DNA of 64,000 nt from Raillietiella orientalis (Eukaryota): assembly GCA_036172245.1 (NCBI GenBank), contig JAYWIR010000019.1, forward strand, positions 1,426,001 to 1,490,000, in the 5' to 3' direction. The position numbers and the translations under genes are program-made. Of the stretch, positions 8,150 through 62,787 are shown piece after piece; within the stretch, counting starts at the first letter, position 1, and the number at the start of each line of letters is the position of its first letter. The notes under the pieces were generated by a model. The model did not search any database, was not told the DNA's origin, and worked only from the letters and a program-made list of their open reading frames with translations.

Positions 8150-8730
8150 TTGCATGGCGAAGAGACGATAAAATACTCCCGCGCGTGTTGACATCCTCAC
8201 CTGGAGGATCGACTCCCAGAAACGGGTGCGCCGTGAGTTTCGAGTTCCCCCTGCAAGATGACGCTGGTTGGCCCATATTCGGGTGCGCGGCGGTACTGGT
8301 GGAAACCGTCTGCCACCGTTGAGGGAGGGTGAGATTGGAATCTGACCTCCGGAGTCATTCCAGAAATCATGGAACTCTTCGGGGTTCCCTTCCGGATACG
8401 AAAACGGAGCTGATCAACACCCCCTTCGGGGGGTTGCCTCTCTAGAATATCAAGTGCGCTGTTCCCTTCGGGAAGCGCCCTTCAGAGAAATCGGAAGCAG
8501 CCCTTCGCAGTTCTCTTTAGAGGAGTAACAGGAAGCAGTTCCTCTACGGATTCCTTCTGGAGTAAAAAAAAAAAAAAAGCGTTCCGGAGGATCCTTCTGG
8601 AAATAATAAGGAAGAAGTTCCTTCCAGGTTCCCTCCAGACACAACCAGGACCTTCCATGAGGACTACAGCGCTGGAGAGAGCTGCTCGACATTCTCAGTG
8701 AAGTCCTAAAGTGGTCCCTGGTTCTCAAGA
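8150..8730 (+). mobile_element. tRNA-derived SINE-like family copy with internal ~40-nt repeat array
   Basis: GGAGGATCGAC...GTTTCGAGTTCCCCCTGCAAGATGACGCTGGTTGGCCC...TTCGGGTGCG core, followed by purine/pyrimidine units such as AGAGGAGTAACAGGAAGCAGTTCC, shared with 38.6 and 62.5 kb. Confidence 0.75.
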
Positions 8731-14699: not shown

Positions 14700-15390
14700 G
14701 GGGAGAAGGACAGAGGAGGACGACGCGTGAAGCTAATGAAGACCTCTGGTTAGGACACGGGGAGTAATAATCACCTGAGTTGGCGGATTTCATGTGCAAG
14801 GCTTGGAGGTCCCTCCTACCCCCCCTGTCCTCCTTCCTTCCTTCGAGGACATGGCGCACAAAAACGCGCCCTACGTGTTTGCAGGTAGCCCTCGCGGGCA
14901 GCCTGCTCTGCAGTGACCGAGCACGCATGTGGTTGCAGCAGCAACTCCCGGATACGAAAAGGATCCACGTTTCTTCTCCCGGCAGACATGGAGGCATTGG
15001 CAACGCTGAAATCCCACGCGATCCGAGCAGCGTCCAAACCTCCCTACCGGAGAGGCGCAGCAGAGAGTGTGCCCCTCCGGAAGAAGCAACCGGGAACACC
15101 GCACGTGACTCCAGGTGCAGCATGAATTATGGTTTACCAATGAAATGGCGACGCTCGCGTTACGCAGCAGATGCCGGTGGTCAGGTTCGGTCGAGTCGAA
15201 CTGTGGTCGATCTGGGCGCACAAGTTGAATGCGGTAGGGTGGCACAAATTTTCCACACAGAAGCGAATCCCGGCAACGGGTCGGAGCGAATCGGCCGTGG
15301 GACTGCACCCACCGTGAGGAAATGCTGGCAAAGAGCGACGGCTTCAGTAGCAGCACCGGAAGCACTGGAAAAAAGAAAAGTACCATCATG
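14700..15390 (+). mobile_element. Decayed R2-like retrotransposon fragment (RT thumb region)
   Basis: DRARMWLQQQLPDTKRIHVSSPGRHGGIG resembles the R2-type R.WL.LP.DT...FHA....GGLG motif. Confidence 0.45.
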
Positions 15391-16003
15391 AGACTGTGAA
15401 GTTGATACTTTGGGTATTTCGGAACGCCGTCGTCTCGACGGAGCTCATCCGTGGAAAGTGGACGCCCTTCGAATCCAGAGTGCGGTTTCCTGCCTGCATG
15501 GCGTGAGCACGTCCACTGGGCCAGCAAACGGTCACTCGCACTCCGCAGCTGGATTTCGCGCGGTTTCACTCGGAAGGAAAAGAACGGGCTCACTCCCTCG
15601 GGAGGCTGGAAGACGGATCTTTCGAGGCTCCTTGCGAGGATGAGAGCAGCCTGTCGGCTGAAGCATCGAACTGCGCGAGGGCGCCTTGAAGTCCTGTTCC
15701 TTTCCCTTCCTCTCCCCTCCTTTAACCTGAGTAAAACCACGTAAATGGTACTTTTTCTGTCTTGGCCCAAGGCAAGCATCCAAAGACCAGACAGCATAAG
15801 GAAGGACATTTCCCTTTCAAGATCCTCATGTGCATTCGAAGCACATAAATTGGAAGTTCGGAGCGAGCCTTGGACCAAGGCGAGTCTTCTCTTTGGTGGA
15901 TGTTCCCGAAGGACGAGTTGAGCCTTGACGAAGAGGCGGTGGAGCTTCCAGCTTCCAGTTCCCCACAGGTTGCTTCTTCTGGAGCCACCTCTGAGAGAAA
16001 AAA

Positions 16004-16150
16004 ACAACACTGAAATAGCAGCAATTCCAAGTGCAATTGTACTATCATATGCTACAAAAAGTACCGATAAAATTAATCCTAGCACTGTTAGTACAGGAAA
16101 AACCCGGAGTTGACTTAAATTCTGTCATTTATCGCGTTCTTATCAATATT
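16004..16150 (-). pseudogene. N-terminal fragment of a bacterial membrane protein (possibly Wolbachia SPFH/band-7), frameshifted
   Basis: AT-rich. Reads IDKNAINDR/LSQLRVFPVLTVLGLILSVLFVAYDSTIALGIAAISVL and starts a few nt after the M23 stop codon (operon-like spacing). The SPFH assignment is from recollection only. Confidence 0.45.
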
Positions 16151-16154
16151 GTCT

Positions 16155-16370
16155 TTAAACTTCTTTTCCACCTGAACTCTCCCTGTTGACTGTTTTATCT
16201 ATCTTATTTACAAATAGTTTCAACTCCCTTAATTCGTGATCAAGCAACTTCACTTTGTTTTTGTGCGTTATTGTAAGTGGATCAACGTGTTTACCGTTAT
16301 ATATAACTTCGTAATGTAAATGGGGTTCTGTGGCAACACCAGTGCTACCAACATAAGCGATGACCTGTCC
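16155..16370 (-). pseudogene. 3' fragment of a bacterial M23 (LytM) family metallopeptidase
   Basis: Translates as GQVIAYVGSTGVATEPHLHYEVIYNGKHVDPLTITHKNKVKLLDHELRELKLFVNKIDKTVNRESSGGKEV*, with the M23 G.TG...PHLHYEV..NG..VDP motif. 5'-truncated. Confidence 0.85.
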
Positions 16371-16371
16371 A

Positions 16372-16754
16372 AGGCTACCTCAGTTGGAAAAGAAAGCAAG
16401 GCAAGGTGATAAAGAATTAAAGAGACAACTTGATTTAATGCAAGAAGTCTTAGCTACTTTAAAACTCGGTAAGCACGCAAGGAGCTTAGAACACATCGAT
16501 AAAGATGAGATGAAGTATCTTCAATTGCTGACAACAAAGCCCGTTATGTACTCTGTAATGTCGAAGATACAAATACCACAACTGGCAATGAACTATCTAA
16601 AAAAGTAGAAAAGATGGCAGAAGAGAACAAGAGCAAGTTTTATTGTATCTCAGCAAAACTTGAAACAGAGATTGCAAATCTTGAAGAAGAAGAAAAAAAA
16701 CAGAGTTTTCTGTAAGAGTTTGGCTTGCAAGAGTCAGGACTTGATGGAGTAGCG
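16372..16754 (+). pseudogene. ychF: Internal fragment of bacterial redox-regulated ATPase YchF (Wolbachia/Rickettsiales-like), disrupted
   Basis: RLPQLEKKARQGDKE...LQLLTTKPVMY/(V)CNVED...ISAKLETEIANLEEEEKKQSFL*EFGLQESGLDGVA. Contains the YchF LLT.KP..Y..NV.E, ISA..E.EI..L and GL.ESGL motifs, a frameshift near 16551 and an in-frame TAA at 16713-16715. Confidence 0.9.
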
Positions 16755-19700
16755 CTTCCGGTGCATAGTTGCCTTCTTGTTTTCCGTTTTCCCATTTTTA
16801 ATTGGACAGCAACAGAGTGAGCGAGGTAGTTCACGTTCTCCGTCTAAGCTTCTTCTAGGGAAGCACGTCTTCTCCGGTAGCTAGTTTTGGAAAAAAAAAA
16901 ACAAAAACGACCAACACCAATTTGAATGGAACATGCAAACACCATCGAATCCCACATTGGATTCCATAAACAGAAAATGGTCGTCGAAGAATGCCTTGAG
17001 TGTTGCCCACTCACACTCGTCAGCGGTTGCTCAATGATTTACACGTCCTCAGCATTTTCTTCAGTGGAACCTCATCTCTCCTTTTTCTCTCCTGATACGC
17101 TTGGAGATGGGTAATCTGTCCGCGTTCCTCCCGAGGAAAACTCGTTGCTAGGACGGCATCGGCGTCGCGGGCAGAATCTCATCGGTGAGGACATGCGAGC
17201 AGATAACGGACACCGACACAGGAATCAAAAGGCAAGCAGCAATCCCAGGAGCAGATTGTCCTGCAGAACCACGCTGCGTGGGGGGTCAGATAGCGAAAGC
17301 CGACAAGAGCATTTCGGACTCGCGCGCTCTTCGAGTGAAGGATGACGCCTTGAAGTGATCTTCGGCAATGCGGTGCTTTGGAATCCTCACCGCTGGCTGG
17401 TGGCGTCGACGGTGCGGCTGGCTGCAAACGGCATCTCCTCCTCTGCCAGCCTGGACCGATTGGGAGGAGGAGGGACTCCTGGATTTTCGGGAGGCCAAGA
17501 TTCCTCTCCGTGAAGAGTTCTGCGCTTCCCTTCATCTCGGGGCGAGGCGAACGGATGCGAAACGCCGGAGGTGCAAGAAGTCCCTACGATGGAAATTCCT
17601 TCCGGCACGTGCAGCCGCATACTCCACAGCTGCTCTTCTCCTGCCATGCTTCCGCTCAAGTAGTCGATCCAGCTGTGCATAGGCTCTCTGCTGGGGTTGT
17701 GATTTTCTGCGAGAGGAAAGCACGTGGTATCGCTCCAGAAACTTCCGCTTATCTGCATCGCAGAGGAAGCTCCTGCCTGATGGTTTCTAAGAGGGGGAAG
17801 AGGGATCCGTCTTTCCCTTTCGAAGAGGTGAGAACCAAAAAGCGATCAGCCGTGATGCAGGGCGTACACACTCAGGTGTGTATGCATTCGACGCACGTTC
17901 ATGCGCGACGAGCAGAAAGCGCCATGTGCACGCATGTCTGTCTGGGCGTGTCTGTGTGTGTGTTTGTGCGTGCGGATGCGCGACACTTGTCTTGCGTACA
18001 GTTCCGTCATCACGGCTTCTCCACATCGTGGTCCATGGCGATGGTCCTGAGGTCGCTTACTTCAAACTTCTGCCCTCCGTGGAATGGAGGGTTCTGGACT
18101 CCGCTGGATTAGCAGGTGCCAGGAGAAGCAGACAAAAAAAACGCGCTTGGCACCACAAGTGAAAGAGGTGCGAAGACATGCAGTTTTCCCGGAGACGAGT
18201 GGGTGTCCAAAGCGAACCTATTTCTCTGCCAATGGGAGCAACCAGGCTCCAGAAAAAATAAAGGAAGGCTGCCAGTGATCGGTCAGTGGGGGGAGTCTGA
18301 CCTCCCGAAAAAGAGAGGCGGAAGAGATTCGTTATCCTTCTTTCCTCCCCCTCCGCCCCTCCGAGGATCCATCTGGGAGAGGGCAGGATGGAATTCTCCG
18401 GCACGCAGAGGGTCCCGGCTCTATGAGCGTGTAGGCACGCGCGTTCGGTGGAGACGCACCGAACCGGCGCCGCTATTGGAGCTCCCTCCTCCGTAGACGC
18501 TGACGGGTCCCCTACCGTCGAGCGGCGCAGTCAACTGCGAGGAAACTGGAAATCCGGGAGGAGATTCCAGCCGCAGAACCTCGGTCAAAAAGGCCTCCAG
18601 CAAAAATTCATGGAGTCTGTCGCCCGGTGAAGCGAAGGCTTCCATTCGTACACGAACAAACAAGTTGAGAACACAAGGAAGGTTCCCGAGGGAAAGCAGG
18701 GAGAGGTTCAAGGGGAGGAGATGATGAAATAAACAATAAAGGGGTGGAACAGGGGTCTTTGGTCTCGACCGTTTCTTCGTCCTAGAACCGGAGCGTGATG
18801 CCGGCGATCTCCGAACTTGACCTGCCCTTCCTGGTACAGCCACCCGCAGCCGTTCTCGCGCAGACGCAGGCTGCGTGTCCGCACTGCCCTCCCTTCTCCG
18901 TGGTGCAGAGGGACCTTGACTTCGGTGCGGGCTCGCCATCTCGTCGCCGCCACTGAGGCTACCGAGAGAGTCCACCGCTCTCGAAGAACCGCCGCAGAAG
19001 GTCGCTCGCGGCGTCCTCTTGAAGTGGGAGCGCTGAAGCCGGCCTCCTCCTGTGTTCGTCACCGTGTTCGCAGAGACCACCCTAGTCCGGAAGTGGGTGC
19101 GGCGGGATTGATTTCTCCTTCCTCGCACCTAGCGCATGGTCCTAAGCGCTGAACTGCACCGGAAGCCCTTGCGCAGGAGCAGCGACACCTCACGCTCCCA
19201 GTTTGTGGGGAGCACCGGTGCGTTCCAGCACAAGGGAAGGACCTCGAGTTCTTCAGGGGCAGCGCCAAGAAGACCGACGTTGTACCTTCGCTTGGGTAAG
19301 CGAGGTGACAGCATCCACCAGCTCGCGCGTGGTCCAGCCGCCCAGGAGTCTGGTCTCTCTCCTGCAGTGGCTCAGGACAAGTAACAACCCGCCGGCTGGA
19401 GATCTTCGTCGCTTGCCCTTAGGGTGAACGGCGCTGTTGCAAAGGGCGTGCTGGCTAGACCTACGGGAATTCTTGGCCTTTTCCTGCAGTGCATCTTTTA
19501 TTGGATGACCCAAAAGACGAAGTCCCTCCCGAGCGTATTTCTAATGGAATCGGGACGGAAGTCGTCCTCAGGTTATAGAGGTCGCTGTCATCGAGGGATC
19601 TGCCATGTTGGGAAAAACAACGGAGCAGGATGGGCAGAAGTGAATTGCGAGGTGCCATGCGATCCAAATTTCCCAACCCGCCCCGAGGATAGGAGCGATC

Positions 19701-22249: not shown

Positions 22250-22850
22250 CTGCCGCTCTGAAGAGCCGCCGTACTGCTGCGCTCTCCACGTGCAGTGCCA
22301 AGTGTTGTGGGTTCGAATCCGGCCCGGGGAAGGATCGACCAGCGTCGTCTCCTACGCAGGACGACGCTGGTTGGCCCCGGTTGGCTTCGGGTATGGCACG
22401 CCCCCCGTTGACAGACCGGGATTGGAAGTTGATCTTCCGGGATCCTCCCAGAAATGAAGGGGTCGGTTCTCTTCGGGTCCCCTTCCGGTTGGCAAAACGG
22501 AGCCGTCCTCTCCTTCTGGGACGGACCCCCATCGCGTACCATGGAGATGGCTGATACCCCCCTCGGTGAGTCGCCTCTCCAGAGTGTAAAAAGCTCTCTT
22601 CTCCCTTCGGGATTCTCTCCAGTGGAGGAAACCAGGAACAGCTCCCTAACGGGTGTCCTCCGGAGAAGAAATTCCAGGAGCGAATCCTTTCCGAGTTCCC
22701 TTCGGAGACAACCAGGACGAAGGCTCCCTTCCGGGTTCCCCTTCCAGGCGTAAGAGGAACGGATTCCTTACTCCAGAGCCTTCCTGGATTCATAGGGTGG
22801 TCCCTCCCGGAGTACCATCTATAACTAGAAGAGTTACGCGCGCTCTCGGG
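22250..22850 (+). mobile_element. tRNA-derived SINE-like family copy, apparently full length
   Basis: B-box GTTCGAATCC at 22311, then GGAAGGATCGAC, GACGCTGGTTGGCCC, the internal array with CCCTTCGGG hairpins, and the family 3' end TAACTAGAAGAGTTA. Confidence 0.75.
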
Positions 22851-23177
22851 TGGCAGGGACCGTGTCAAAGAGAGTCGTGAGGTCCCCCTGTGGAGACGAG
22901 CGGCTCCCCGGCACTCGTGGAAAACCGAAAAAGAGGGAAGATGGAAGGAAAGAGGATTTCCATCATCCCGAAAGTGCGGTAATTAAGGGAAGAAGGCGAC
23001 CCTTCCCCGCACCTGCTGTTGGACTGTGCTGCCCTCCGACCCCCTTGGCATCACCACGTGACGACCCTAGGATTTCCAGCGAAGGGCCCCCCAGGGGCAT
23101 TTGGAAACGCCTCTTTGAGCGTACCGCGCTGCCGCTAGCCACGTCCCTTGCGGTTCTCCGCTGCCCCGTCTGCGGGA
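22311..23177 (+). repeat. 867-bp direct duplication, copy 1 (copy 2 at 31445-32311)
   Basis: Constant 9134-bp offset. Only two substitutions seen (GGCAGGGAC/GGCATGGAC and AGAGTCG/AAAGTCG). Identical ORFs appear in the track (22454/31588). Confidence 0.95.
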
Positions 23178-24750
23178 CGGTGGTGGCTTGGAAAGTTCAA
23201 AAGAAGAGGGTCGAAACGGCAGGAACGCCACCCACTATGCGCGAATCTTCCTGAGGACTGCCTCGAGATGACCTCACCTGGGCGAGACACGGAGAGAACT
23301 TGCGGGATCCTAAACAGGATGCAGAGGACGCCTGGAAGCGTACTATGATCACTTCCTGGGTTCCCTTCCCCCCTTCCTCCCCGTGTATAGCTTTCCCTCG
23401 CCTATTTCGTTCATTTGTTTTTGCCTCCTTTTCCCCCACGCTGTCGTCCCAAACCTCGCCGGTCTGCGCACCGGTCTTCGGCAGGTTCACTGCAGGCGGT
23501 GGCATCAATGTATTTTTATTACTTTACGTAGGAAATCTCCGGGAATAACCGGGCGATTATCATCCAGAGTTTCAACAGCGGGTTGTGCCAACGGGTCACG
23601 AGAATCCTGGATTCTCCTCTGTCCAGGGAGGGGTCTGTGCTCGTATACCAAGGATCGGACGCTCCTGGAACTCTTGTGGTCGCAGTTAATCTGCACAGAG
23701 CTCTCGTTTGCTTCGATCAGGAGCTCCCTCTGGAGATTTTGGAACGCATGGGATTCCTGGCCGTCTTCCTGGCCTATCTGCGTTCCAGCTGACGCAACGC
23801 GCTAATAAATATCTGTTTTCAGCGGACGGCATGTGTTTGGCGTGTCCGTTCGCCAAGGCGTAAGGCAGGGTGACAGCCTGAGTCTCCTGCTCTTCAGCAT
23901 TCACTTCGAGTTGATTCTGAGAGCATACAGAGAGACTCTGACAACCTGCAGAGTCCGTTACCCTGGCACGCCTGCCTTGTTAGCCTATGTGGACGATCTT
24001 TTGCTGCTGCTCTCCAGGACCGTCCCGGCGTCAGCACTCGAGAGCTTCTTCGAGTTGTCAAGTCGGTGCTCAGACCTTGAGGACTAACAGGACGAAGTCG
24101 TCATCGGTACTGGATCGGTGCGGCGTAAACCGGACGGTCAGACTGGGTTCGCCTAGGGATCCCCATAGACGGGTACTTCAAGTACCACGGCGTTTCGTTG
24201 GGGGACTTCTGCGTTACAGAAGTCTGTTCCTGCCGTCTCCAAAAAGTAGAGATATCACACAGCCTGTTCCAAAACGACAGGTTTCAGTTGCCGGAACGGG
24301 CCGCGGTGTGGAACTCGTTTGTGGCTGTTCCCCTCCGCCCCCTGCTTTCTGTTTTCCCCACCCCTCTTGACATCAAGAGAAGGACCGATGACCTCCTGAG
24401 AAAAGCCCTGTGGGGCACAGGGAGTTCCCGAGTCCGACTCAAAGACTTGTGTGCTCCTCGTTGGGATGGTGGACTGGGCCTTTTACGCGGGAAAGGATGG
24501 AGCATCAGCTCCAGTTCATAAGACTCGCCCTCGCAGCGATATTGTGGACCACGCCTTGGTGCTCACCAGCACGTCTCCTCGCGAAGAGAGCAACTGGCTG
24601 CGAGGGAATTGCGTCCCTCCTCGTCACTCGCTAGGGATTGCTGAGACATTGTGGATATCAACTTCTCCAGAGAGTTGCCCTAGTGGACGACAAATGGATC
24701 TCCTCCCTTCCCGTGAACTGAACTTCCTGGTTCCAAGAGTTCGTCTTCGC
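23150..24750 (+). mobile_element. Decayed Tx1/L1-clade LINE ORF2 (reverse transcriptase)
   Basis: WKRTMIT, LEILERMGF, GVRQGDSLSLLLFSI, AYVDDLLL and ALWGTGSSRVRLKDLCAPRWDGGLGL in canonical order, with stops and frameshifts. Confidence 0.88.
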
Positions 24751-30019: not shown

Positions 30020-30570
30020 GGAGAGAACACTCGCCCTGGTTGTCTCCAGGGAAACGTTTTCCTTGTTCTCTCCGGAGATGAAGAGAATAATGAAGTGGGC
30101 CCCTCCGGTCTCATGGAGGAGGCCACTCCATTATCCCTCTTCCGAAGGGAACCCGAAAAGGATCCTCTCCTGGGATTTCTTTCTCCAGAGGCATTCGCAA
30201 GGGAACCGCTCCTTGTTGCTTCTCTTCAGAGGAAGGATCGCTGAAGAGTGATTCCCCGAAGGGAGCAGTGCGCTTCTGACATTCTGAAGAGGTAACCCCC
30301 CCCGAGGGAGGTATGCTCCATGACACGGAACGAAAAGTCTCACCGGAGGTATTGGATTTGATGCCTTTTTCACAACCGGAGGGGAGCACCCTGGAGAGCT
30401 CCTTGATGTCCTGCAAGGACCTCGGAGGGTCGACTTTCGATCCCAGCCTGTCAACGGGGGCCATCTGATGTCTGGTTTCCAACGGTGCTATACGCGGAGC
30501 CCCTGCGGCCAACCAATGTCATCCTGAGGTGGGGGAGAGGAAGGGGACTCGAAATCCGCGATGCCTTAGG
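30020..30570 (-). mobile_element. tRNA-derived SINE-like family copy (core and array)
   Basis: Reverse complement: GGATTTCGAGTCCCC...CAGGATGACATTGGTTGGCC...CCCCCGTTGACAGGCTGGGATCGAAAGTCGACC...CTCCCTTCGGGG...CAAGGAGCGGTTCCCTTGC. Confidence 0.75.
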
Positions 30571-31444
30571 ACCGAGGCATCTTTGCAGCTTGTGTCCAGG
30601 CGATCATCTCGTGCCTGGACACAAGTGGACTGTCCAATGCGAACAAGGAAGGCTGATGGTGGACGAGAGCAGCTTTTCGTGAAGACGTCAGCCGACTGAG
30701 AAGTGGTTGATTGTTGGGTGTTCCCGTCTTCCCGTCTGTAGTTGTTCCGTTCGCTTCCGCGCCCGCCATCATCAGCGTAATGAGAAGATCGTTATGGTCT
30801 TCTAAGTCCATCCCCGGAGCCAGCAGCCTGAGTGAAGCAAAAAGTCCAAAAGTAGGGCCCTTGAACTCCGGAGGTCCCCTTGCGACGTAAAGAAAGGAAG
30901 GAGGAAAAAAAGGAAGGAAAGAAGGAAGAAATTGGCTGTGTAAAGTTTAAATTTAGGACTTCATCAAGCCCCAGCACATTTCTTAAATCACGCGTTGCTC
31001 GTAACAACCAGCCAGAAAAGCAGAAGAAAAAAAAACTTCTTCATCACCGACTTTAAATGATGATTGAGGACCGAATCTTCTCATCCAGTCTTGTTCTGAG
31101 GGAGCGAAGTAGCTTCGAGGGAACGAGAACGACGGAAAACGTCGAGCCTTGTTCTTGCGAGGGGGATAAGGGGGAGGGGCGATCCCGGATTGGAGAAAAA
31201 GTAGGCGTTCCGTTCGTACGGATTCCAGGGAAGGCGCGGCGTGCGATTTCGACTCACCTCCCAGAGATGGGAGCCGAGCAAGCTGACGAAAGAAAGATGG
31301 CAACTTCCGGGATGAAGGAGAGAGAGTCGAAGCCAGAGCAGAGGACCCACGAGACCGACCGAACGCCTTCGAACGCAAAGATCCTCCATACCAGGTGGAC
31401 ACGGTCGAGAACATGGACTCCGCTCGCGGTACCGAGCGTTGCGA

Positions 31445-32311
31445 GTTCGAATCCGGCCCGGGGAAGGATCGACCAGCGTCGTCTCCTACGCAGGACGACG
31501 CTGGTTGGCCCCGGTTGGCTTCGGGTATGGCACGCCCCCCGTTGACAGACCGGGATTGGAAGTTGATCTTCCGGGATCCTCCCAGAAATGAAGGGGTCGG
31601 TTCTCTTCGGGTCCCCTTCCGGTTGGCAAAACGGAGCCGTCCTCTCCTTCTGGGACGGACCCCCATCGCGTACCATGGAGATGGCTGATACCCCCCTCGG
31701 TGAGTCGCCTCTCCAGAGTGTAAAAAGCTCTCTTCTCCCTTCGGGATTCTCTCCAGTGGAGGAAACCAGGAACAGCTCCCTAACGGGTGTCCTCCGGAGA
31801 AGAAATTCCAGGAGCGAATCCTTTCCGAGTTCCCTTCGGAGACAACCAGGACGAAGGCTCCCTTCCGGGTTCCCCTTCCAGGCGTAAGAGGAACGGATTC
31901 CTTACTCCAGAGCCTTCCTGGATTCATAGGGTGGTCCCTCCCGGAGTACCATCTATAACTAGAAGAGTTACGCGCGCTCTCGGGTGGCATGGACCGTGTC
32001 AAAGAAAGTCGTGAGGTCCCCCTGTGGAGACGAGCGGCTCCCCGGCACTCGTGGAAAACCGAAAAAGAGGGAAGATGGAAGGAAAGAGGATTTCCATCAT
32101 CCCGAAAGTGCGGTAATTAAGGGAAGAAGGCGACCCTTCCCCGCACCTGCTGTTGGACTGTGCTGCCCTCCGACCCCCTTGGCATCACCACGTGACGACC
32201 CTAGGATTTCCAGCGAAGGGCCCCCCAGGGGCATTTGGAAACGCCTCTTTGAGCGTACCGCGCTGCCGCTAGCCACGTCCCTTGCGGTTCTCCGCTGCCC
32301 CGTCTGCGGGA
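31445..32311 (+). repeat. 867-bp direct duplication, copy 2 (SINE copy plus ~330 bp 3' flank)
   Basis: Near-identical to 22311-23177 and starts exactly at GTTCGAATCC. Confidence 0.95.
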
Positions 32312-33789
32312 TGGTGACTGCCTGGAACTCCCAGAAGAGGCTGGAATAGCAGGGATGGCGCAAATCTTCATGAAGATCGCCTCCAGATGGCCCCACTGTG
32401 AAGCCACTGTGAAATGCACCGTCAGAAGGACTAGTGAGGGATCCGGGACGCGAGCGGTGTAGGATGATGGAACGGGAATGGAGCGCCCACGACGCCGGCT
32501 CGGCTTACGAAACCCCGGAGACGGAGTCGGTTTCCAGAGATACAGCGTAGATCGTGGAAGTTGCGCGCGCATCGAGATGAAATGGGAATGGCTCCTGTGA
32601 CAAAAACGAAGTGCTTGCGATCGACGGCAACGACAGGAAATGCCTTAGCGGGGCCACAGTCGGCGCCGCAGCAGCGTCTGCTAAGGGGAGCGGCCGACGT
32701 CGCCCGTAGATGATGTCTTTACGAGTGGGAGACGTTCCGGGAAGCAAAAGAGCTGAACCGAAATCAAGTGCCGTCTCCTTCCGCGCCAATCCGATTAGAC
32801 ATCACGGAATTCTCGGGAAAGTCTCGCGCCCAAGTTATAATCAAGCGCGTCTGTGGTTAAAATACCCCGCCGTCGTGGAAGTAAAGGACTGAGAAGGAAA
32901 AAGAAAGAAGGATGAGAAGGGGAGGAGGAAAGAAAGGAACCTCCACAGTAAATTCCTTGAGGATTTGATTAACCATTCATTGGCTGTATTTTGATTGGCT
33001 CCAGAGGCTGCAGCCGGACCCTGAACCAGGTGGCCGGGATGGTGGCTGCCTGGCATTCCTTGTGCGGGAGCCGAGAGGGCGATTGACGGTGGAAACGACT
33101 GACGCCGCGGAACTTGCAAGAGAGTCCGTCCGATGGGATCCCCCCAAACCCGGCGACGATCGAAATCGCACGGAAGAGACCGATTCACGGGAAAGGAGTT
33201 CAGGCGCGCCGGTTGGGAGAGGAGCACATTCTGGGGCTCCGTGAGTTCACGGAAGCTGAAACGAGGGATGTCGAGATCGGAAGTTTCAGGGGCTCGTCCT
33301 CGATGCACGAAGAAAGCGTACGGCGGCATGGGGAATTCCCGAGGGCGACCAAAGGTGGTACGGGAACCGCAGCCAATGTGATGATGGGATCGACTGGTCT
33401 CCCCCGCGCACAGACGTCGGGGACCTTCACGAGAATACCTCGCGAGAGAAGGAGGACGAAACGCCTGCTGCGGGGAAGCAGAAGGAGCGGGAGCGTAGAA
33501 GCCAGTGGTGGGAGGGTATGGGTCTCTGAGGAAGGGTGAGGAGGCAGCCAAAACCTCGGGCCGAGATGCATGTACCTTGCAGAAGAAAAAAAACTGCCGA
33601 AGAGCTTCCTCCAAATCACCGAGAGACAACCTTCCGTATGATCCGGGGATCCTTTGGGGTTATTTCCTATCCCCCTGTTTTTTTTCCAGTTTTTTTCCTT
33701 TTGCGGGGTGGGGGTTCACCAAGTGCTGAAGAACCGTTCGCCGCCTTAGGAGAGGCGCACGGAGCTCTTTGATGCTGTTTACGCCACTC

Positions 33790-33965
33790 TGGAGTGCGTG
33801 TTAACTCTTCAATTTAGGGGTTACCCGCGAAGAGATCACCCCATGAATCCATGAAGAGCTCTGAAGGAAGGAGTTTGCACTCCTTACCTCCTTACTCTTT
33901 GAAGGGAGCAGTGCAATTTCTGACATTCTGGAGAGGAAACTCCCTCTTCGATGGAGGTGTTGATC
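33790..33965 (-). mobile_element. 3' part of the SINE-like family
   Basis: Reverse complement ends ...GGATTCATGGGGTG...CCCCTAAATTGAAGAGTTAACACGCAC, matching 38885-38910 and 62771-62785. Confidence 0.7.
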
Positions 33966-33984
33966 AGATCCGTTCTTGTCTTCA

Positions 33985-34830
33985 CAAAGCACTGCAGGCA
34001 CTCGGCCCCGTTCCAAAGAGACAGGTTTCAACTGCCAGAACGGGCCGCGGTGTGGAACACGTTCGTGTCTCTCCTTCTTCACTCCCTGCTTCTTGTTTGC
34101 CCTCAGCCATGCAGCATTAGAAAGCGGACAAAGGACCTCCTCCTGATCGTCTGTGGGGCAAAGGGAGGTCCCGAGTCCGCCTAAAGGAATTGTGTGCTCC
34201 GCGCCGAGACGGTGGCATAGGCATTTCCTGACACTGGAGCTAACGGAGCTGCATCTCCAGTAAAGAACACTTTTCCTAGTGGCGAAGCTGTGGCGCACGA
34301 ACTGGTGCCAACCTGCACGTCTTCTCGTCAAGCGAGCCACCGACAGTGTGGAACTCGCGTCCTTCCTTGCGCGCCGTCCACGTATTCTCATATACTGTGG
34401 ACTGCACCTGCGGAAGATGGTCACGCTGGCCAGGAAAAACGGACGGATCTCGTGCCGCCCCGCTAACGGTGGTGCCTGGTTGCAGGAAACCGTTCGCACG
34501 TGAGCGAGGATCCAGGAGCCAAGCACGGAACAGGTGCGACGCTCCCTGTACGCGCGTAACAACTGCACGCTCAGGTCGATCCTGGAAGATCCCGTAAAGA
34601 GTTCATGGGTAGGCAGACCCTCTCTCGCCGCCGCGCTGCCCCCCTTTAGGGAGCACATGGGCAGCAACCTCGCGGAAAAATGCGAGGTTACTGTGGAAAT
34701 CTCCGGAAGGAGAAAAGGACTGGGCGAATGGACGAAGGGACAGCCCATCGACGTCTTGCGACCCCGATTGCTCGACGTCATGGACTTTTACACTGGGGAG
34801 TGCCACTGGGTATTCCGGAGGAAGATCTTC
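33985..34830 (+). mobile_element. Second decayed Tx1/L1-like LINE ORF2 fragment
   Basis: FQRDRFQLPERAAVWNTFV and RVRLKELCAPRRDGGIG are homologous to 24265-24480. Confidence 0.8.
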
Positions 34831-35021: not shown

Positions 35022-35325
35022 TTACAAGGATGAAGAAAACCCTCCAGCACCTGGTGATCCCTTTCCGAACCCACTCATTTTTTTTTACTGTATGTTTTTT
35101 GTTTTATTTTTTTCTCTTTATTTGTCTCCCCTTCCCCTGTGCTGACGAGGCGAATCCGCTGGCCTGCCTGTCAGTTCCCGGCAGGTTCCTTCTCGTATTT
35201 ATAAGTGATGTGTCGGGATCAAACGTCCTGCCACAGACATGTATGTTTATTTTTTATAAATAAACGCCCCCGCGTGACCGGATGTCAATCAGTGCCGCAC
35301 CCGAAAATAAGCTGACCAGGGTCAT
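35022..35325. repeat. 304-bp inverted duplication, arm A (arm B at 38100-38403); a SINE head abuts it on the - strand at ~35300-35450
   Basis: The reverse complement matches 38100-38403 with about two mismatches. The same peptide (KTLQHLVIPFRTHSFFF...) appears in ORFs 34832+ and 38162-. Confidence 0.95.
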
Positions 35326-38099
35326 CTTGCCCGGCGGGAGGGAACTCGAAACCCATGATGCACCCATTTCTCGGCATCGATCCTTCCCCCCCATGGGGGG
35401 ATTCGAACCTGCAAAGCTTGGCAACACGCACAGCGATGGCAGCCACGCGGTCTTCTTTCGACAAAGTGCTGAAAGTCGATCACCTGCGACTCTTGCCACG
35501 AGCACTGTATATCGGACAGAAGTTCGGGAGGAAAGAGGAGGGAGGCTGAAACCGAATCCAGCTTCCCGAAAACCTCCTGCGATAAAGGAGTGCTGGGATG
35601 CGCTGCGAAATGTTTGGGATCGCTGCATTCCAATCGGTCACAGGAGGAGGGAGTCGCTCCCTCCAAAGGCTTGCCTCATGTGAAGCGAGACTGTCGTTTG
35701 GAGGAAGCGCTCGATAATTACGAGGAAGCCGTATGGCTACCTCCGCAGCTGTCAGCAAGGAACATCGTTACTTCCGGGGGTCCCAGGGGTTTCATGAATA
35801 TGTGGAGAGTTCGGAAGGGCGGCAAGGATCGCTGGTAACTGCTTCGCAGACAGCACCAAGACGACGGTCTGAATTTTCGACCCCCCGCGGAACTGACACC
35901 AGGATGTCCAGGGAAACTGGAAGCGACAGAAAAAGAGGCTATGACTTGACACTTGACGCTGTAACACGGCAGGAGTCGACCTGCAGGTGAGAGGCCACCG
36001 CGGGCAGACCAATGGAATGAGATGCTTCCACTTGCTTCGATGATTGCTTTGACCAAGAGCTAACATTCGGGACCCAAAATATAAAGACAAGGGTTCACCT
36101 TCGCGTTCATCCTAGAAGAATTGGAAAGTGGGCAAAGTCCAGTTCGGGCTTCCCCAGTCTCGGCTCTTGAGACCATACGAGTCGTCTCGGATTCCGCTCT
36201 CAGCCACAGGATGGGAATCGTCGCTTCGTGTGACGTCACGAGCGCGTGATGCCGAAGCGCAATACCCGACCGATCCACGGAATTCCTGAACCGATTCCTG
36301 AACGGACGCCGGGGATCCAGATCGGAGACTCTGGAACGAACGTGAATGCCGTCTGCTGGAGGAAGACATTTTTCTTCAGGTGGATGGAGGGATCTGTATG
36401 AAGCTTTTCCGAATCTGTTGACCCTCACCCGTGCACATCCGTCCCCGTCGTCCGCGCTTCATCAAGCCATGTCTAAAACAAGGTCAATCATGCAGTATGT
36501 TTTGTGTACAATTAAATGTCCATTTCCGCGTACTCAGATCCAAGCTGCAAGTGCTTCAGAGTTTTGTGTGATCAAGGGACGAAAGCGAACCTCCAACCCA
36601 CTGAAAGTCAGGAATGTGACCTTCCACCGAGAACTGAGCTGCAAGAACTTCTGAGGTGCCGCAAGGATTTTGAACGAATTCTTGGAACACCCCCCGATTT
36701 CGGCTGAAGCCGCTCAGGAAGCGCACAGGGCGCCCCAAGGAGCTGAAGAAAGAGCTGGCGCGACGTGTCCCGCGTTCTTGCCATTCCAGCCTTTCTGCTT
36801 AACACCCGCTTGCCGCTCGAGGATCCGGGAAGACCCAGCCGATCCGGGAAACGATCACAGGTTTCCACTTCCGCGCCGCGACCAACGGGTCGAGTCGACT
36901 AAAAGAGACACAGTTTGGAACTTTGACTCTGAAGGAGCCTGAAACAGATTTCCAGCACATATCGTGGAAGCTGAGGTGACTTCAGAACATCGTTCCGGGC
37001 TTGGCGGGCGAAGAGACTGCGCTCTTCAACATCTCAAAACCAGGAGACCATTCTTTGACCGACTGGTCATCCATCCGATCCCACGAAGCATATTTCATAA
37101 GCCACAACAGACGCTCGTGGGACACCTTGGGGTTGCTTCTGGCTCCTTCTTTCGGATGGGGCAGTGACGAGCGCCTTCGAAAGTCCAAAGTGCACCCACG
37201 GCTGGAAAGAAAGTTGATGAGCACCGCTGATAGAGGGTGCTCGAAGACCTCTGGTCGTGTTCTTATGGTGATTCGAAAGCACGGGATCTGGAAACTTGTG
37301 GTCCAGCCGGGAACCGGAGAAGGGTACGTCATAAGAAGGCCTTGGTCAGCTTCGAATTTCCTGCTAGACGGAATGGAACACTCAAGTGACCTACTCGTGC
37401 CTCCGTCTCCGGAGCGTCCGGACTGCTCCAAATCTACATGCCAACTCCCCCGCTAAATGGAAATTTTTCTTCCAGGCGTGGATGGAGGGCTCTAAGGTCT
37501 ATTCTCACGGCCCCAGCTGCGAATGCTGCAAACGTGCACAGTCGGGCGCGTTGCTTTGGTACACGCCTTCCCAATGATAAAACTCCTACAAGATGCGAGT
37601 CACGAAAAATCAAAAGTCCTGAGTTGGGCGGCTAATGGTTTCAGAAAGACGGAGATCGCAGATCCACTTCGAAGTTCAGGATGGACTGGTTGCTGTTCCC
37701 TCCCTCCGCTTCTCTTTCCCATACATAGATGTGTGCTCTTCTGCTCCCAATCAGGACACACTCCCTGCTACCTCCTGCATCTTAAGGAGCGGTTTCTCGT
37801 GTTGAATATGCGGAGAAATTGCGGAGGTGATTTCTAACGAGATTTTTCTCTCTGCGTGCGGAGAGAAAAATTGCTACTAATTGCTACTTGCTAATACCTT
37901 GCTAATTTGTTCCTGATGGTCTGCGTGCCTGCTCCTCTTTTCCGAATCGATCTTTCCCGCGATTTCTCGGGACTGCGCTAGAGGCTGTTTGGCTTCGGTC
38001 TCCGCTAGCGGTGCCAGGCATCGAGAGTTCGAATCCCGCCCTGGAAAGGATTGAGGCCAGAGTTATGGGCGCGTCGTGAATTCCAGTCCCCCTCGCAAA

Positions 38100-38403
38100 A
38101 TGACCTTGGTCAGCTTATTTTCGGGTGCGGCACTGATTGACATCCGGTCACGCGGGGGCGTTTATTTATAAAAAATAAACATACATGTCTGTGGCAGGAC
38201 GTTTGATCCCGACACATCACTTATAAATACGAGAAGGAACCTGCCGGGAACTGACAGGCAGGCCAGCGGATTCGCCTCGTCAGCACAGGGGAAGGGGAGA
38301 CAAATAAAGAGAAAAAAATAAAACAAAAAACATACAGTAAAAAAAAATGAGTGGGTTCGGAAAGGGATCACCAGGTGCTGGAGGGTTTTCTGCATCCTTG
38401 TAA
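38100..38403. repeat. 304-bp inverted duplication, arm B; preceded by a SINE head (GTTCGAATCC at ~38027)
   Basis: See arm A. Confidence 0.95.
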
Positions 38404-38589: not shown

Positions 38590-38910
38590 GTTCCCAAAGG
38601 GGCTAGAAGGCAACACTTCGGGGAGAGCCCTTCAAAAAAATTGGGAAGCGGCCCTTTCTGGTTCTCTTCAGAGGAGTAACAAGGAGCGGTTCCCTTGCAG
38701 GTTTCTTTCGGGGTAGAGAAAAAAAGGGTGACCCCCTCCGGGGGGATCTCTCCGGACAGAATGAGGTAGAAGTTCCTTTCGAGGTTCCCTTTGGAAACAA
38801 CCAGGGCGAGGATTCCCTTCGAAGCGCAAGAGGGGAAGGACTCCTTCCTCCGGAGCCATAGGGTGGTTCCCTCCCGGGGTGGTCCCCTAACTTGAAGAGT
38901 TAACACGCAC
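38590..38910 (+). mobile_element. SINE-like family internal array and 3' end
   Basis: About five ~40-nt units (for example AGAGGAGTAACAAGGAGCGGTTCCCTTGCAGGTTTCTTTC) and the terminal CCCTAACTTGAAGAGTTAACACGCAC. Confidence 0.75.
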
Positions 38911-49100: not shown

Positions 49101-49469
49101 ACAACGACAGAAATCGTGAACAGTTAGATAAAAGTCGTCTCGAAGCCAACACTTTCATACAGAAAGGATACTAAATAGAAATAGTACTTCTATACCGAAG
49201 AGCGTCACATTTTGAAATATTGAAAAGGTTTTTCCTTATGAATTTCCTGAGATTTTAATGGGATATTTGAATAAGCGATGAATACTTGCAAGAAGCATTA
49301 CTCAGTGATTCATGACTGAAGAAACTGGTATTGATTTATTAATTACGACAACAAGTCTACTGATTTTATGGAAATTATCGTTTATGACTTGCTGGAATTT
49401 GATACATTACTTTCATTTGATGAATGCATTTGCCAAATTGCAAGGATTGCACTTCCTTAAATGAGAATC
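49101..49469. repeat. 369-bp inverted repeat, left arm (right arm at 50237-50605)
   Basis: ACAACGACAGAAATCGTGAAC...TAAATGAGAATC is the reverse complement of 50237-50605; one mismatch seen. Confidence 0.96.
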
Positions 49470-50236: not shown

Positions 50237-50605
50237 GATTCTCATTTAAGGAAGTGCAATCCTTGCAATTTGGCAAATGCATTCATCAAATGAAAGTAAT
50301 GTATCAAATTCCAGCAAGTCATAAACGATAATTTCCATAAAATCAGTAGACTTGTTGTCGTAATTAATAAATTAATACCAGTTTCTTCAGTCATGAATCA
50401 CTGAGTAATGCTTCTTGCAAGTATTCATCGCTTATTCAAATATCCCATTAAAATCTCAGGAAATTCATAAGGAAAAACCTTTTCAATATTTCAAAATGTG
50501 ACGCTCTTCGGTATAGAAGTACTATTTCTATTTAGTATCCTTTCTGTATGAAAGTGTTGGCTTCGAGACGACTTTTATCTAACTGTTCACGATTTCTGTC
50601 GTTGT
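50237..50605. repeat. 369-bp inverted repeat, right arm
   Basis: See left arm. Confidence 0.96.
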
Positions 50606-52192: not shown

Positions 52193-54007
52193 ATGGAAAG
52201 TTCTCTCCCAATTGACATACACTGCAGTAAACTTTTAGACTGGATAATCAGCAGGAGACATGCCAAAACAAACTGGATGGAATCACTGGAAATAATCCGA
52301 AAAAAAATAAAAGATGCCCTTCGTAATATGCCTGCAGACAATGAGATGACAAAATTGCTTTCAGGAACATGTAAATACTGTTAACATAATAATAGCAGCA
52401 AAATGGAAATGAACATAATTTCTGACAACTCTTGTTATTTATAACTTCATTTGTCGTCATTTTTACTAAAACAATGATTCTAGATATCAATTATTTCCAC
52501 TGTTGTAAAATAATGGAAATTTTGAAGAGGACAGAAGCTGACAGCAAAAATGTCCTTGGCTTTTACACCTCTCAGCGAATGAAGGACTGGCAAGAAATTT
52601 TGAGGCTGTATGAAGAGGAAGGAGTATTTTTAGCAGAAACTGCACAGCTGCTGATGAGAAATGTCACTTATGAGATACCCGGTTTAAAGCGCAGCATTGT
52701 GAGATGTGGAGAACTTCAAGAGGTATAGTTTGTAAGGTATTGAACACAAATAAATCCAAGGGACAGGAATGCCACAGAAAGGAACAAGAACTGCACAAGA
52801 TTATTAACACCACACATAGTCAGTATCTTAATGGCTGTAAACAGATAGGTGTTATTGGAAATCATCTCAAGGAAGAATTATTGGAATTGGTGAAGCAGCT
52901 GCCCAAGATTTTGGATGAGATTGCATCCAAAAGCCAGTGCTTGCAGCATGCTAGAGAATTTTATCAGAGTTTTGTTAGCTTTTCATTAGAGTCTGCAACT
53001 CAGAGACAGGAATGTCTATCCATGTTGGCCTTCTTGCAAAGTGAGAAGAATTGCTGTAGTACTCATTATAATATAATATTTTGAGATAAGGGAAATTGTA
53101 CTGTTTATGAATGGAAATATAAAGTGGCTCCCACATGTGTTAAAAGACCAGACATCAGTAATTTTCCTGATGCAGTTTCTTGTGATAATGGTGAAGATCT
53201 TCAGGCAGGTCTGTAAGAGGTTTACATTGGATGTAACAAATGTATAGATCAAGGGATTGATTGGGGTGATTTGGAGGAAATGCAGCCACTTTCAAATGAT
53301 GTGCAGCAGGATGTGCATTTCATATCAGCAGCACAGGATTCAGGTATCACTCTGGAGGAATTTGGTGTGCAGGAAAAGGGTGTAGCAACAGATTTAGAAG
53401 CTTTGACTGTATTGGAGAACCAAGTAACTAGAGACCTTGTGCTGAATGATCTTACAGAGGTGAGGGCGAAATTTGTTTGTACTTTCTTTGTGAGGGAAAT
53501 AATTGACTACAGCTAAAAGGATTTTTGGAGATTCGCCTCTGGGAGATGAAAGCTGGAGATAATGTGTTATCTCTTAGTCAGCTCCAGTCTGCTCCTGCAC
53601 TAGTACAGATGATGAGTGTTGATGTGATTGAAAGCATGCTAGGCCATGTAGCATGCATCTGGCAGCAACTGACTTCTGTAAAACTGAAGCATCTGTTACT
53701 TATTCAGTCTTCACCACGTTATGTGGATCGACTAGTACAGTCTTTACAGCAACCACATCAGTTAGAAGAAAAACTTGTGAAGGAACTACAACATCTTCAG
53801 AATAGAAGTAAGCAAGCACAAGATGAAGTTCAACATTTGCAGCCACAATTGACACATCTCATTAGGCAAAGTCGAGTATTGCAAGATCAGGTAACTTTGG
53901 AGTCAAATATATTGTTTTTAGCTTTGAATATTCAGGTAGAACAGGAGATCTCAAAGAAGTATCACTCTCGGTTAGTGAATATAATGGGAGGTGTGCCAGC
54001 AGCCTAA
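52193..54007 (+). CDS. CDK5RAP3: CDK5 regulatory subunit-associated protein 3 (C53/LZAP), 7 exons
   Basis: LPIDIHCSKLLDWIISRRH, INYFHC..I.EILK.TE...KN..G.Y.SQRMKDWQEI, KGNCTVYEW, IDWGD, SPRYVDRL and ISKKYHSRLVNIMGG. Introns at 52371-52483, 52723-52766, 53041-53085, 53209-53247, 53460-53512 and 53891-53935 restore one reading frame. Confidence 0.96.
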
Positions 54008-62191: not shown

Positions 62192-62787
62192 CCGCTCTGG
62201 CGGCCAAGTGAATGGTGACCTCCTCACGTTGTAAGAAGCGTTGTGGGTTCGAATCCTGCTAGGGGAAGGACCGATGCTAAGAATAGGTGGGCACGCCGTG
62301 GGTTTCGGGTTTCCCTCCCCGCAGGATGAGGCTAATAGGCCTATTCGGGAGCGGCCTTTGAGGAAGCAGGATGCTTCCGTTGAGTGGCCTTCCGGGAATC
62401 GAGTATCCCAATCGAGTATCTCCTCCAGTTGTGAAGATGGAAGCGTTCCGTGAAGCTGATCGATACCTTCCTCGGGGGAAGTTCCATTCCAGAGTGTCAG
62501 GAAGCGCGCTGATCCCATCAGGGAGCTCCCTTCAGAGAAATCGGGAAGTGTTACTTCCCGGTTCTCTTTAGAAGAGTAAGAGGGAGCGGTTCCTTTGTGG
62601 GTTCCCTTCGAATAAGAAACAAGTGTGCCCTCCCCTCCGGGGGGTCCCTCCAGGGAAAATAAAAAAGAGGTTACCTTCGGGGTTTCTCTACCAAGCTTGA
62701 GAGGAACCGACTCCTTTCTCAGGAGTCTTCCTGCATCCATGGGGTAGTCCCTACAAGCTACAAGGTGGCTCCCTAAATTGAAGAGCA
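62192..62787 (+). mobile_element. tRNA-derived SINE-like family copy, apparently full length
   Basis: A-box-like TGGCGGCCAAGTGAATGG, B-box GGTTCGAATCC at ~62246, GGAAGGACCGA, the internal array, and the 3' end CCCTAAATTGAAGAG. Confidence 0.75.

Follow-up and report, generated by a model that had tools for sequence, protein, structure and literature searches.

How does a short block of bacterial DNA come to lie in an animal contig, and was it put together in the nucleus, in its bacterial donor or during sequencing and assembly? These questions are raised by an AT-rich island in the window, by which we mean the whole 64-kb stretch of DNA that was analysed.

Results

Composition of the AT-rich island

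A preliminary description had placed the island at 16004–16754, in GC-rich repeat DNA, and had read it as a nuclear Wolbachia transfer (nuwt) with three bacterial-type fragments, frameshifts and a stop. Matches to Wolbachia genomes and to aligned sequencing runs shift the limits of the island to 15995–16755 (761 bases). The base composition agrees with the earlier account. Both halves of the island have a GC content of 36–37%, compared with 51–55% on the left side and 58% at 17101–17600, and the first 350 bases to the right of the island are intermediate (42–44%). The island is the lowest-GC segment of 761 bases in positions 1–39000 (0.368), and the next-lowest elsewhere has a value of 0.405. 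The flanking DNA is GC-rich, as described, but a self-BLAST of the window finds zero repeat copy in the immediate flanks. The features of the island and its borders, in window coordinates, are as follows.

15992–15995, no strand: left host junction, at which a few bases fit either side
15995–16370, minus strand: piece A, a contiguous Wolbachia fragment running from the end of an M23 gene into the start of an SPFH/band 7 gene, with the natural order kept
15995–16171, minus strand: N-terminus of an SPFH/band-7 membrane protein, the first ~59 codons of ~289, including a hydrophobic N-terminal stretch
16155–16370, minus strand: C-terminus of an M23 family peptidase, the last 71 codons (259–329 of 329) and the stop, with the N-terminal part absent
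16370–16371, no strand: joint between pieces A and B, blunt, with zero shared or inserted bases and in mid-gene on both sides
16371–16755, plus strand: piece B, an internal ychF fragment, codons 143–271 of 364
16751–16764, no strand: right host junction; the donor match ends at 16755

The island is Wolbachia DNA that consists of two unlinked pieces joined end to end. A DNA search gives matches to the island in 58 of 60 genomes from the genus Wolbachia, with best identities of 92–95% and E values that reach about 1e-170, far beyond chance. The nuwt reading is retained and refined to two unlinked pieces rather than a single stretch. All three fragments of the earlier account (M23, membrane protein and ychF) are visible in the six-frame translation and are identified by Pfam or TIGR profiles, the membrane protein through its bacterial counterpart. 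In the phage and plasmid collections, zero match to the island was found, and the phage collection likewise contains zero match to its right flank. An Rfam search of the window gave 0 matches. Against five Wolbachia genomes, the window contains no further Wolbachia DNA (best other E value of 0.012).

Piece A is 92–94% identical to the five nearest genomes, with one 1-base gap. Its M23 fragment matches Pfam PF01551 above the cut-off (E 1.9e-7) and is 91% identical to Wolbachia proteins. The glycine just before the HxH motif is replaced by glutamate through a change at 16327, in a column that is invariant in 20 of 20 rows. The bacterial counterpart of the membrane-protein fragment matches PF01145 with an E value of 1.6e-23 (donor-locus open reading frame L115:1726–2592), and the fragment itself carries a 1-base deletion at 16119, within a T run. 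In the donor loci, the M23 and SPFH genes are consecutive and are preceded by a gene that we take to be yebC-like. The SPFH/band-7 gene of one Wolbachia locus, L090 (G041:C8:1287-4665), is split into two frames at a T run, which reflects either a pseudogene or a sequencing error.

Piece B is 93–95% identical to the five nearest genomes. Its two frames match the ychF profile TIGR00092 with E values of 1.5e-7 and 0.0086. The fragment carries a 1-base deletion at 16551, outside a homopolymer, and a stop at 16713–16715. Over codons 143–271, each of the 21 Wolbachia rows has an open ychF frame, and the island alone has a broken one. Two further Pfam candidates were rejected as chance, namely a weak match of the second ychF frame to T4_RIIA1 (E 0.003, below the cut-off) and one to BT_3928.

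Placement of the donor

The sequence matches identify the donor as Wolbachia, in line with the Wolbachia/Rickettsiales origin that had been proposed. The named top protein matches are all from Wolbachia or from metagenome-assembled genomes labelled Rickettsiales, the DNA identity reaches 95%, and the best matches of the M23 fragment in the genome collection are Wolbachia. Among the named M23 matches, 329-residue proteins rank first (85–91%) and include those of Wolbachia from Melophagus, Penenirmus and Alcedoecus; types of groups A and B do not exceed 84% in this ranking.

A comparison with Wolbachia had been suggested as a means of assigning a supergroup, and it points to F. In a protein tree built from 25 of the 59 matches and the island, the M23 fragment (67 residues) groups with the strains of Melophagus, Penenirmus, Alcedoecus and Mansonella perstans with a split support of 98.7/100, a placement that extends to the F level only, from one short fragment. 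These strains belong to supergroup F according to published strain descriptions (PMC9903615, PMC10195089). A DNA tree that draws on 20 of the 60 genomes provides placement at clade level: the island is nested inside one Wolbachia clade with a bootstrap value of 98. Supergroup F is thus a well-supported assignment for the donor, on short sequence. The terminal branches of the two pieces are nearly equal (0.039 and 0.043) and lie within the same clade, in agreement with a single donor and a single time.

The inner joint

The bluntness of the joint between pieces A and B was judged from the donor context beyond each end, using 15 matches at an identity of at least 88%. Among the 60 Wolbachia genomes searched, 52 contain two separate matches, and zero rows span the joint. 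The aligned sequencing runs, which cover the two bacterial pieces only and at up to about 95% identity, have loose ends at the joint (16367–16371) and at both outer limits in all four cases. The spacing between A and B ranges from 22 to 963 kb in 11 single-contig genomes that we chose. The fragments therefore come from distant places in the donor and meet at a blunt joint, a combination that is described for complex insertions by end joining.

The joint could also have been formed inside a Wolbachia genome, in which both genes were broken before the DNA was transferred as one piece. Wolbachia genomes are rearranged, and many pseudogenes are reported for some F strains in the account of PMC9903615. 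However, the joint is unspanned in the 60 genomes and the four runs, and ychF is intact over the fragment in all 21 rows. We regard a bacterial origin of the joint as highly improbable.

The two pieces could alternatively be the remnant of one long insertion whose middle was later deleted, with or without inversion, so that A and B were brought together. The gene order varies widely between Wolbachia genomes, and in the genome G001, A precedes B on one strand at a distance of 45 kb, so that one deletion would produce the order of the island. In contrast, A and B lie on opposite strands, 99–963 kb apart, in four of four single-contig genomes of the donor clade (G012, G031, G042 and G043), an arrangement from which a simple deletion does not work. 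A shrunken long insert would also need three clean trimming events, and the window contains zero other Wolbachia remnant. This history is rather unlikely.

The host junctions

The island ends were searched for traces of the insertion mechanism. No target-site duplication was found, with a longest flank duplication of 2 bases over shifts of ±8, and no terminal inverted repeat was found at the island ends. Transposon- or retro-mediated insertion was rejected on these grounds and on the orientation of the genes, which lie on opposite strands and do not form one transcript. The right junction is crossed by a 14-mer whose inverted partner, matching at 13 of 14 positions, lies at 15353–15366, 1.4 kb upstream. 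This partner was noticed after the fact, and one within 1.5 kb is equally present at 25 of 1500 random host sites; it is at most a weak hint of a short microhomology. The joined flanks align weakly with a nearby host motif (score of 36, as compared with a maximum of 34 in 200 shuffles), and the left flank by itself scores only 1 point less than the alignment across the junction.

Among 22 sequencing runs, none of which is an RNA run and four of which were aligned, the host flanks were not found; the best share of words was 0.07–0.09. The host junctions are accordingly without read support in these runs, as they would be if the island were a chimera that arose in the library or the assembly from host DNA and a co-sequenced live Wolbachia, for example through the amplification of a tiny animal. 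Blunt joints also form by ligation in libraries. The decay of the island and the quality of the surrounding assembly both bear on such a chimera.

Decay and substitution pattern

In comparison with 6–7 close genomes, the changes private to the island amount to 24 substitutions and two 1-base deletions (16119 and 16551). Both deletions are also observed against four of four aligned sequencing runs. One private substitution creates the stop at 16713–16715. A second apparent stop in the substitution scoring was rejected as an artefact of treating two adjacent changes separately, and one real stop remains. The frameshifts and stop of the preliminary description are thus accounted for by these three lesions.

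The substitutions tell less of decay. Over M23 and ychF, with the SPFH part left out of the count, the substitutions found only in the island comprise 8 silent and 12 changing ones (pN/pS 0.39), which is indistinguishable from the 27 silent and 26 changing substitutions of live strains (Fisher p 0.44). The changing share of the island is below the neutral expectation (p 0.048). Substitutions from AT to GC (13) and from GC to AT (10) exhibit no clear shift, and a live genome, G027, has 31 private changes as compared with 26 in the island. Decay had been presented as an argument for integration; the two deletions and the stop bear this argument out, but the pattern of substitutions does not. Because this pattern is live-like and sub-neutral, part of the 5% divergence would belong to an unsampled donor. 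Some of the divergence would then predate the insertion, and the island cannot be dated.

The substitution pattern is also compatible with the live strain of a chimera. The ychF lesions are not: a stop plus a frameshift away from homopolymers, in a frame that is open in every Wolbachia row, would not be found in a live strain.

Host genes and local assembly quality

Two host genes were identified on the same contig, about 25–38 kb from the island.

48303–41281, minus strand: HEATR1, 2015 amino acids, 20 introns of 38–84 bases, identified by named homologues
52193–54007, plus strand: CDK5RAP3, 506 amino acids, 5 introns of 39–113 bases, identified by Pfam

The host is an animal, as these intact spliced genes share the contig with the island. 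Both genes read through with GT-AG introns and zero indel repair, in an intron search that could mask an indel as a false intron. The ordinary intron ends and the lack of indel repair indicate that the assembly is locally accurate, and the breaks in the island are therefore probably real. Host genes free of indel errors also stand against a chimera, which would need three false joints fixed in the consensus. We consider a chimera improbable.

The best matches of HEATR1 are only 48–50% identical and come from a sea spider, stick insects, a water bug, a locust and a tick. In a tree of 41 rows, with no ostracod among the 30 proteins that were named, HEATR1 falls outside the insect clade (support of 1.0); its long branch stands next to a tardigrade, a horsehair worm and a sea spider. 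The grouping with these three animals is probably a product of long-branch attraction. From this protein, the host is probably not an insect. A homologue search with CDK5RAP3 gave zero matches at an E value of 1e-8.

The introns of HEATR1 and CDK5RAP3 are very small, mostly 38–57 bases. The gene block has a GC content of 33–40% and a CpG observed/expected ratio of 0.41, and the surrounding non-coding DNA has values of 50–70% and about 0.9; the genes in the window are rich in AT and the DNA between them in GC. The larger AT-rich region at 41–57 kb is not bacterial, as it holds the host genes. HEATR1 and CDK5RAP3 are divergently oriented, and a 369-base inverted duplication (49101–49469 and 50237–50605) with 1 mismatch, no gap and arms 767 bases apart lies between them. 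It represents a very recent duplication, transposon ends or an assembly artefact.

Repeats do occur elsewhere in the window according to the self-BLAST. A ~1-kb repeat is present in two copies that are 95% identical (22284–23277 and 31418–32396), with shorter relatives at 8400–8650, 30140–30310, 33720–33970, 38620–38900 and 62450–62680. An inverted pair (35022–35408 and 38027–38403) is 92% identical over 388 bases, with its arms about 2.6 kb apart. Two stretches at 24263–24621 and 34007–34367, within the 23950–24620 / 34007–34367 region, are 70% identical. A YVDD-like motif was seen by eye near 23990, and we presume that it marks decayed remnants of a LINE reverse transcriptase; one open reading frame tried there had no Pfam match. 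Ten long open reading frames in and around the island flanks and elsewhere in the window, including the ~1-kb repeat, gave Pfam matches in 0 of 10 cases.

Discussion

The island is most likely a dead nuwt of the complex kind and a trace of past or present infection. We infer a true integration from the decay and the genomic context. As to how the insert arose, the account that we hold to be probable, by analogy with organelle insertions, is that two DNA fragments from lysed symbionts were ligated together and inserted at a chromosome break through end joining. A supergroup F Wolbachia would have resided in the germ line of an ancestor of the host. Two fragments of ~380 bases, from distant places of its chromosome, would have been ligated blunt to each other, and end joining would have sealed the pair into a double-strand break of the host, probably all as a single event. 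From the start, the insert would have lacked a complete gene; the two 1-base deletions and the nonsense change would have come later. Against this course of events stand the position of the 16119 deletion in a T run and the SPFH gene of L090, which is also broken in frame. End joining and a single event are inferred from the joint and the branch lengths rather than seen directly. As a functional acquired gene, the island has no complete open frame to offer; its three genes are partial, and two of them are broken. A function of the insert is unlikely, as no gene is complete, and the insert presumably has none.

Short, disabled nuwts are common, including F-derived ones, and F-derived nuwts are described in many filariae in the reports consulted (10.1101/2025.03.17.643741, PMC3849323, PMC2882956). 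Like the filarial and arthropod nuwts portrayed there, the island comprises gene fragments that are a few hundred bases long and carry disabling mutations, lies outside host genes and can be assigned to a supergroup. Unlike them, it consists of two unlinked fragments with a base-resolved blunt joint; inner joints are not analysed in the relevant passages of those reports. The present host, moreover, is probably neither an insect nor a filarial nematode. The island also resembles the Wolbachia fossils of Dictyocaulus viviparus, which are described as frameshifted, stop-bearing nuclear Wolbachia DNA that records a past infection (PMC4046930) and have been attributed to supergroup F (10.1101/2025.03.17.643741). 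Unlike the one 761-base locus presented here, those fossils are reported to amount to about 1 Mb with junctions checked by read pairs.

The closest mechanistic parallel comes from organelles. In complex organelle insertions, distant fragments are reported to be joined blunt or by microhomology of 1–7 bases, either ahead of integration or in its course (PMC6215612). The island is like these complex numts and nupts of non-homologous end joining in that distant fragments of a cytoplasmic genome are joined blunt. It differs from them in that the donor is a bacterial symbiont and not an organelle, and that study concerns plants, so that the mechanism is carried over by analogy. A literature search for base-level joints of nuwts found nothing on point, and the supplements of the nuwt papers may list joined fragments.

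The host may be a non-insect arthropod, possibly an ostracod crustacean, and the island may belong to a set of dozens of patchworks of finely shredded supergroup F DNA; this combined proposal is a possibility that we put forward with reserve. There are reports of Wolbachia in two ostracod species, both non-marine, and it is described as seldom found in non-isopod crustaceans (PMC3335409); supergroup F has been reported from terrestrial isopods (cited in PMC9903615). In the literature searched, no report of supergroup F in ostracods or aquatic crustaceans was found, and the main text of an ostracod genome paper (PMC8049415) does not mention Wolbachia.

The island alone matters little, as nuwts are common and it encodes nothing and dates nothing precisely. 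It does indicate, at the strength of the supergroup assignment, that the germ line of the host lineage was entered by Wolbachia of supergroup F. Should the host prove to be a crustacean other than an isopod, supergroup F would have a wider host range than is known so far. If shredded patchworks in a non-insect arthropod are confirmed, they would provide genomic proof that supergroup F infected the germ line in a host group for which no report was found, and they would constitute a natural set of base-resolved joints with which the ligation of symbiont DNA into chromosome breaks could be tested.
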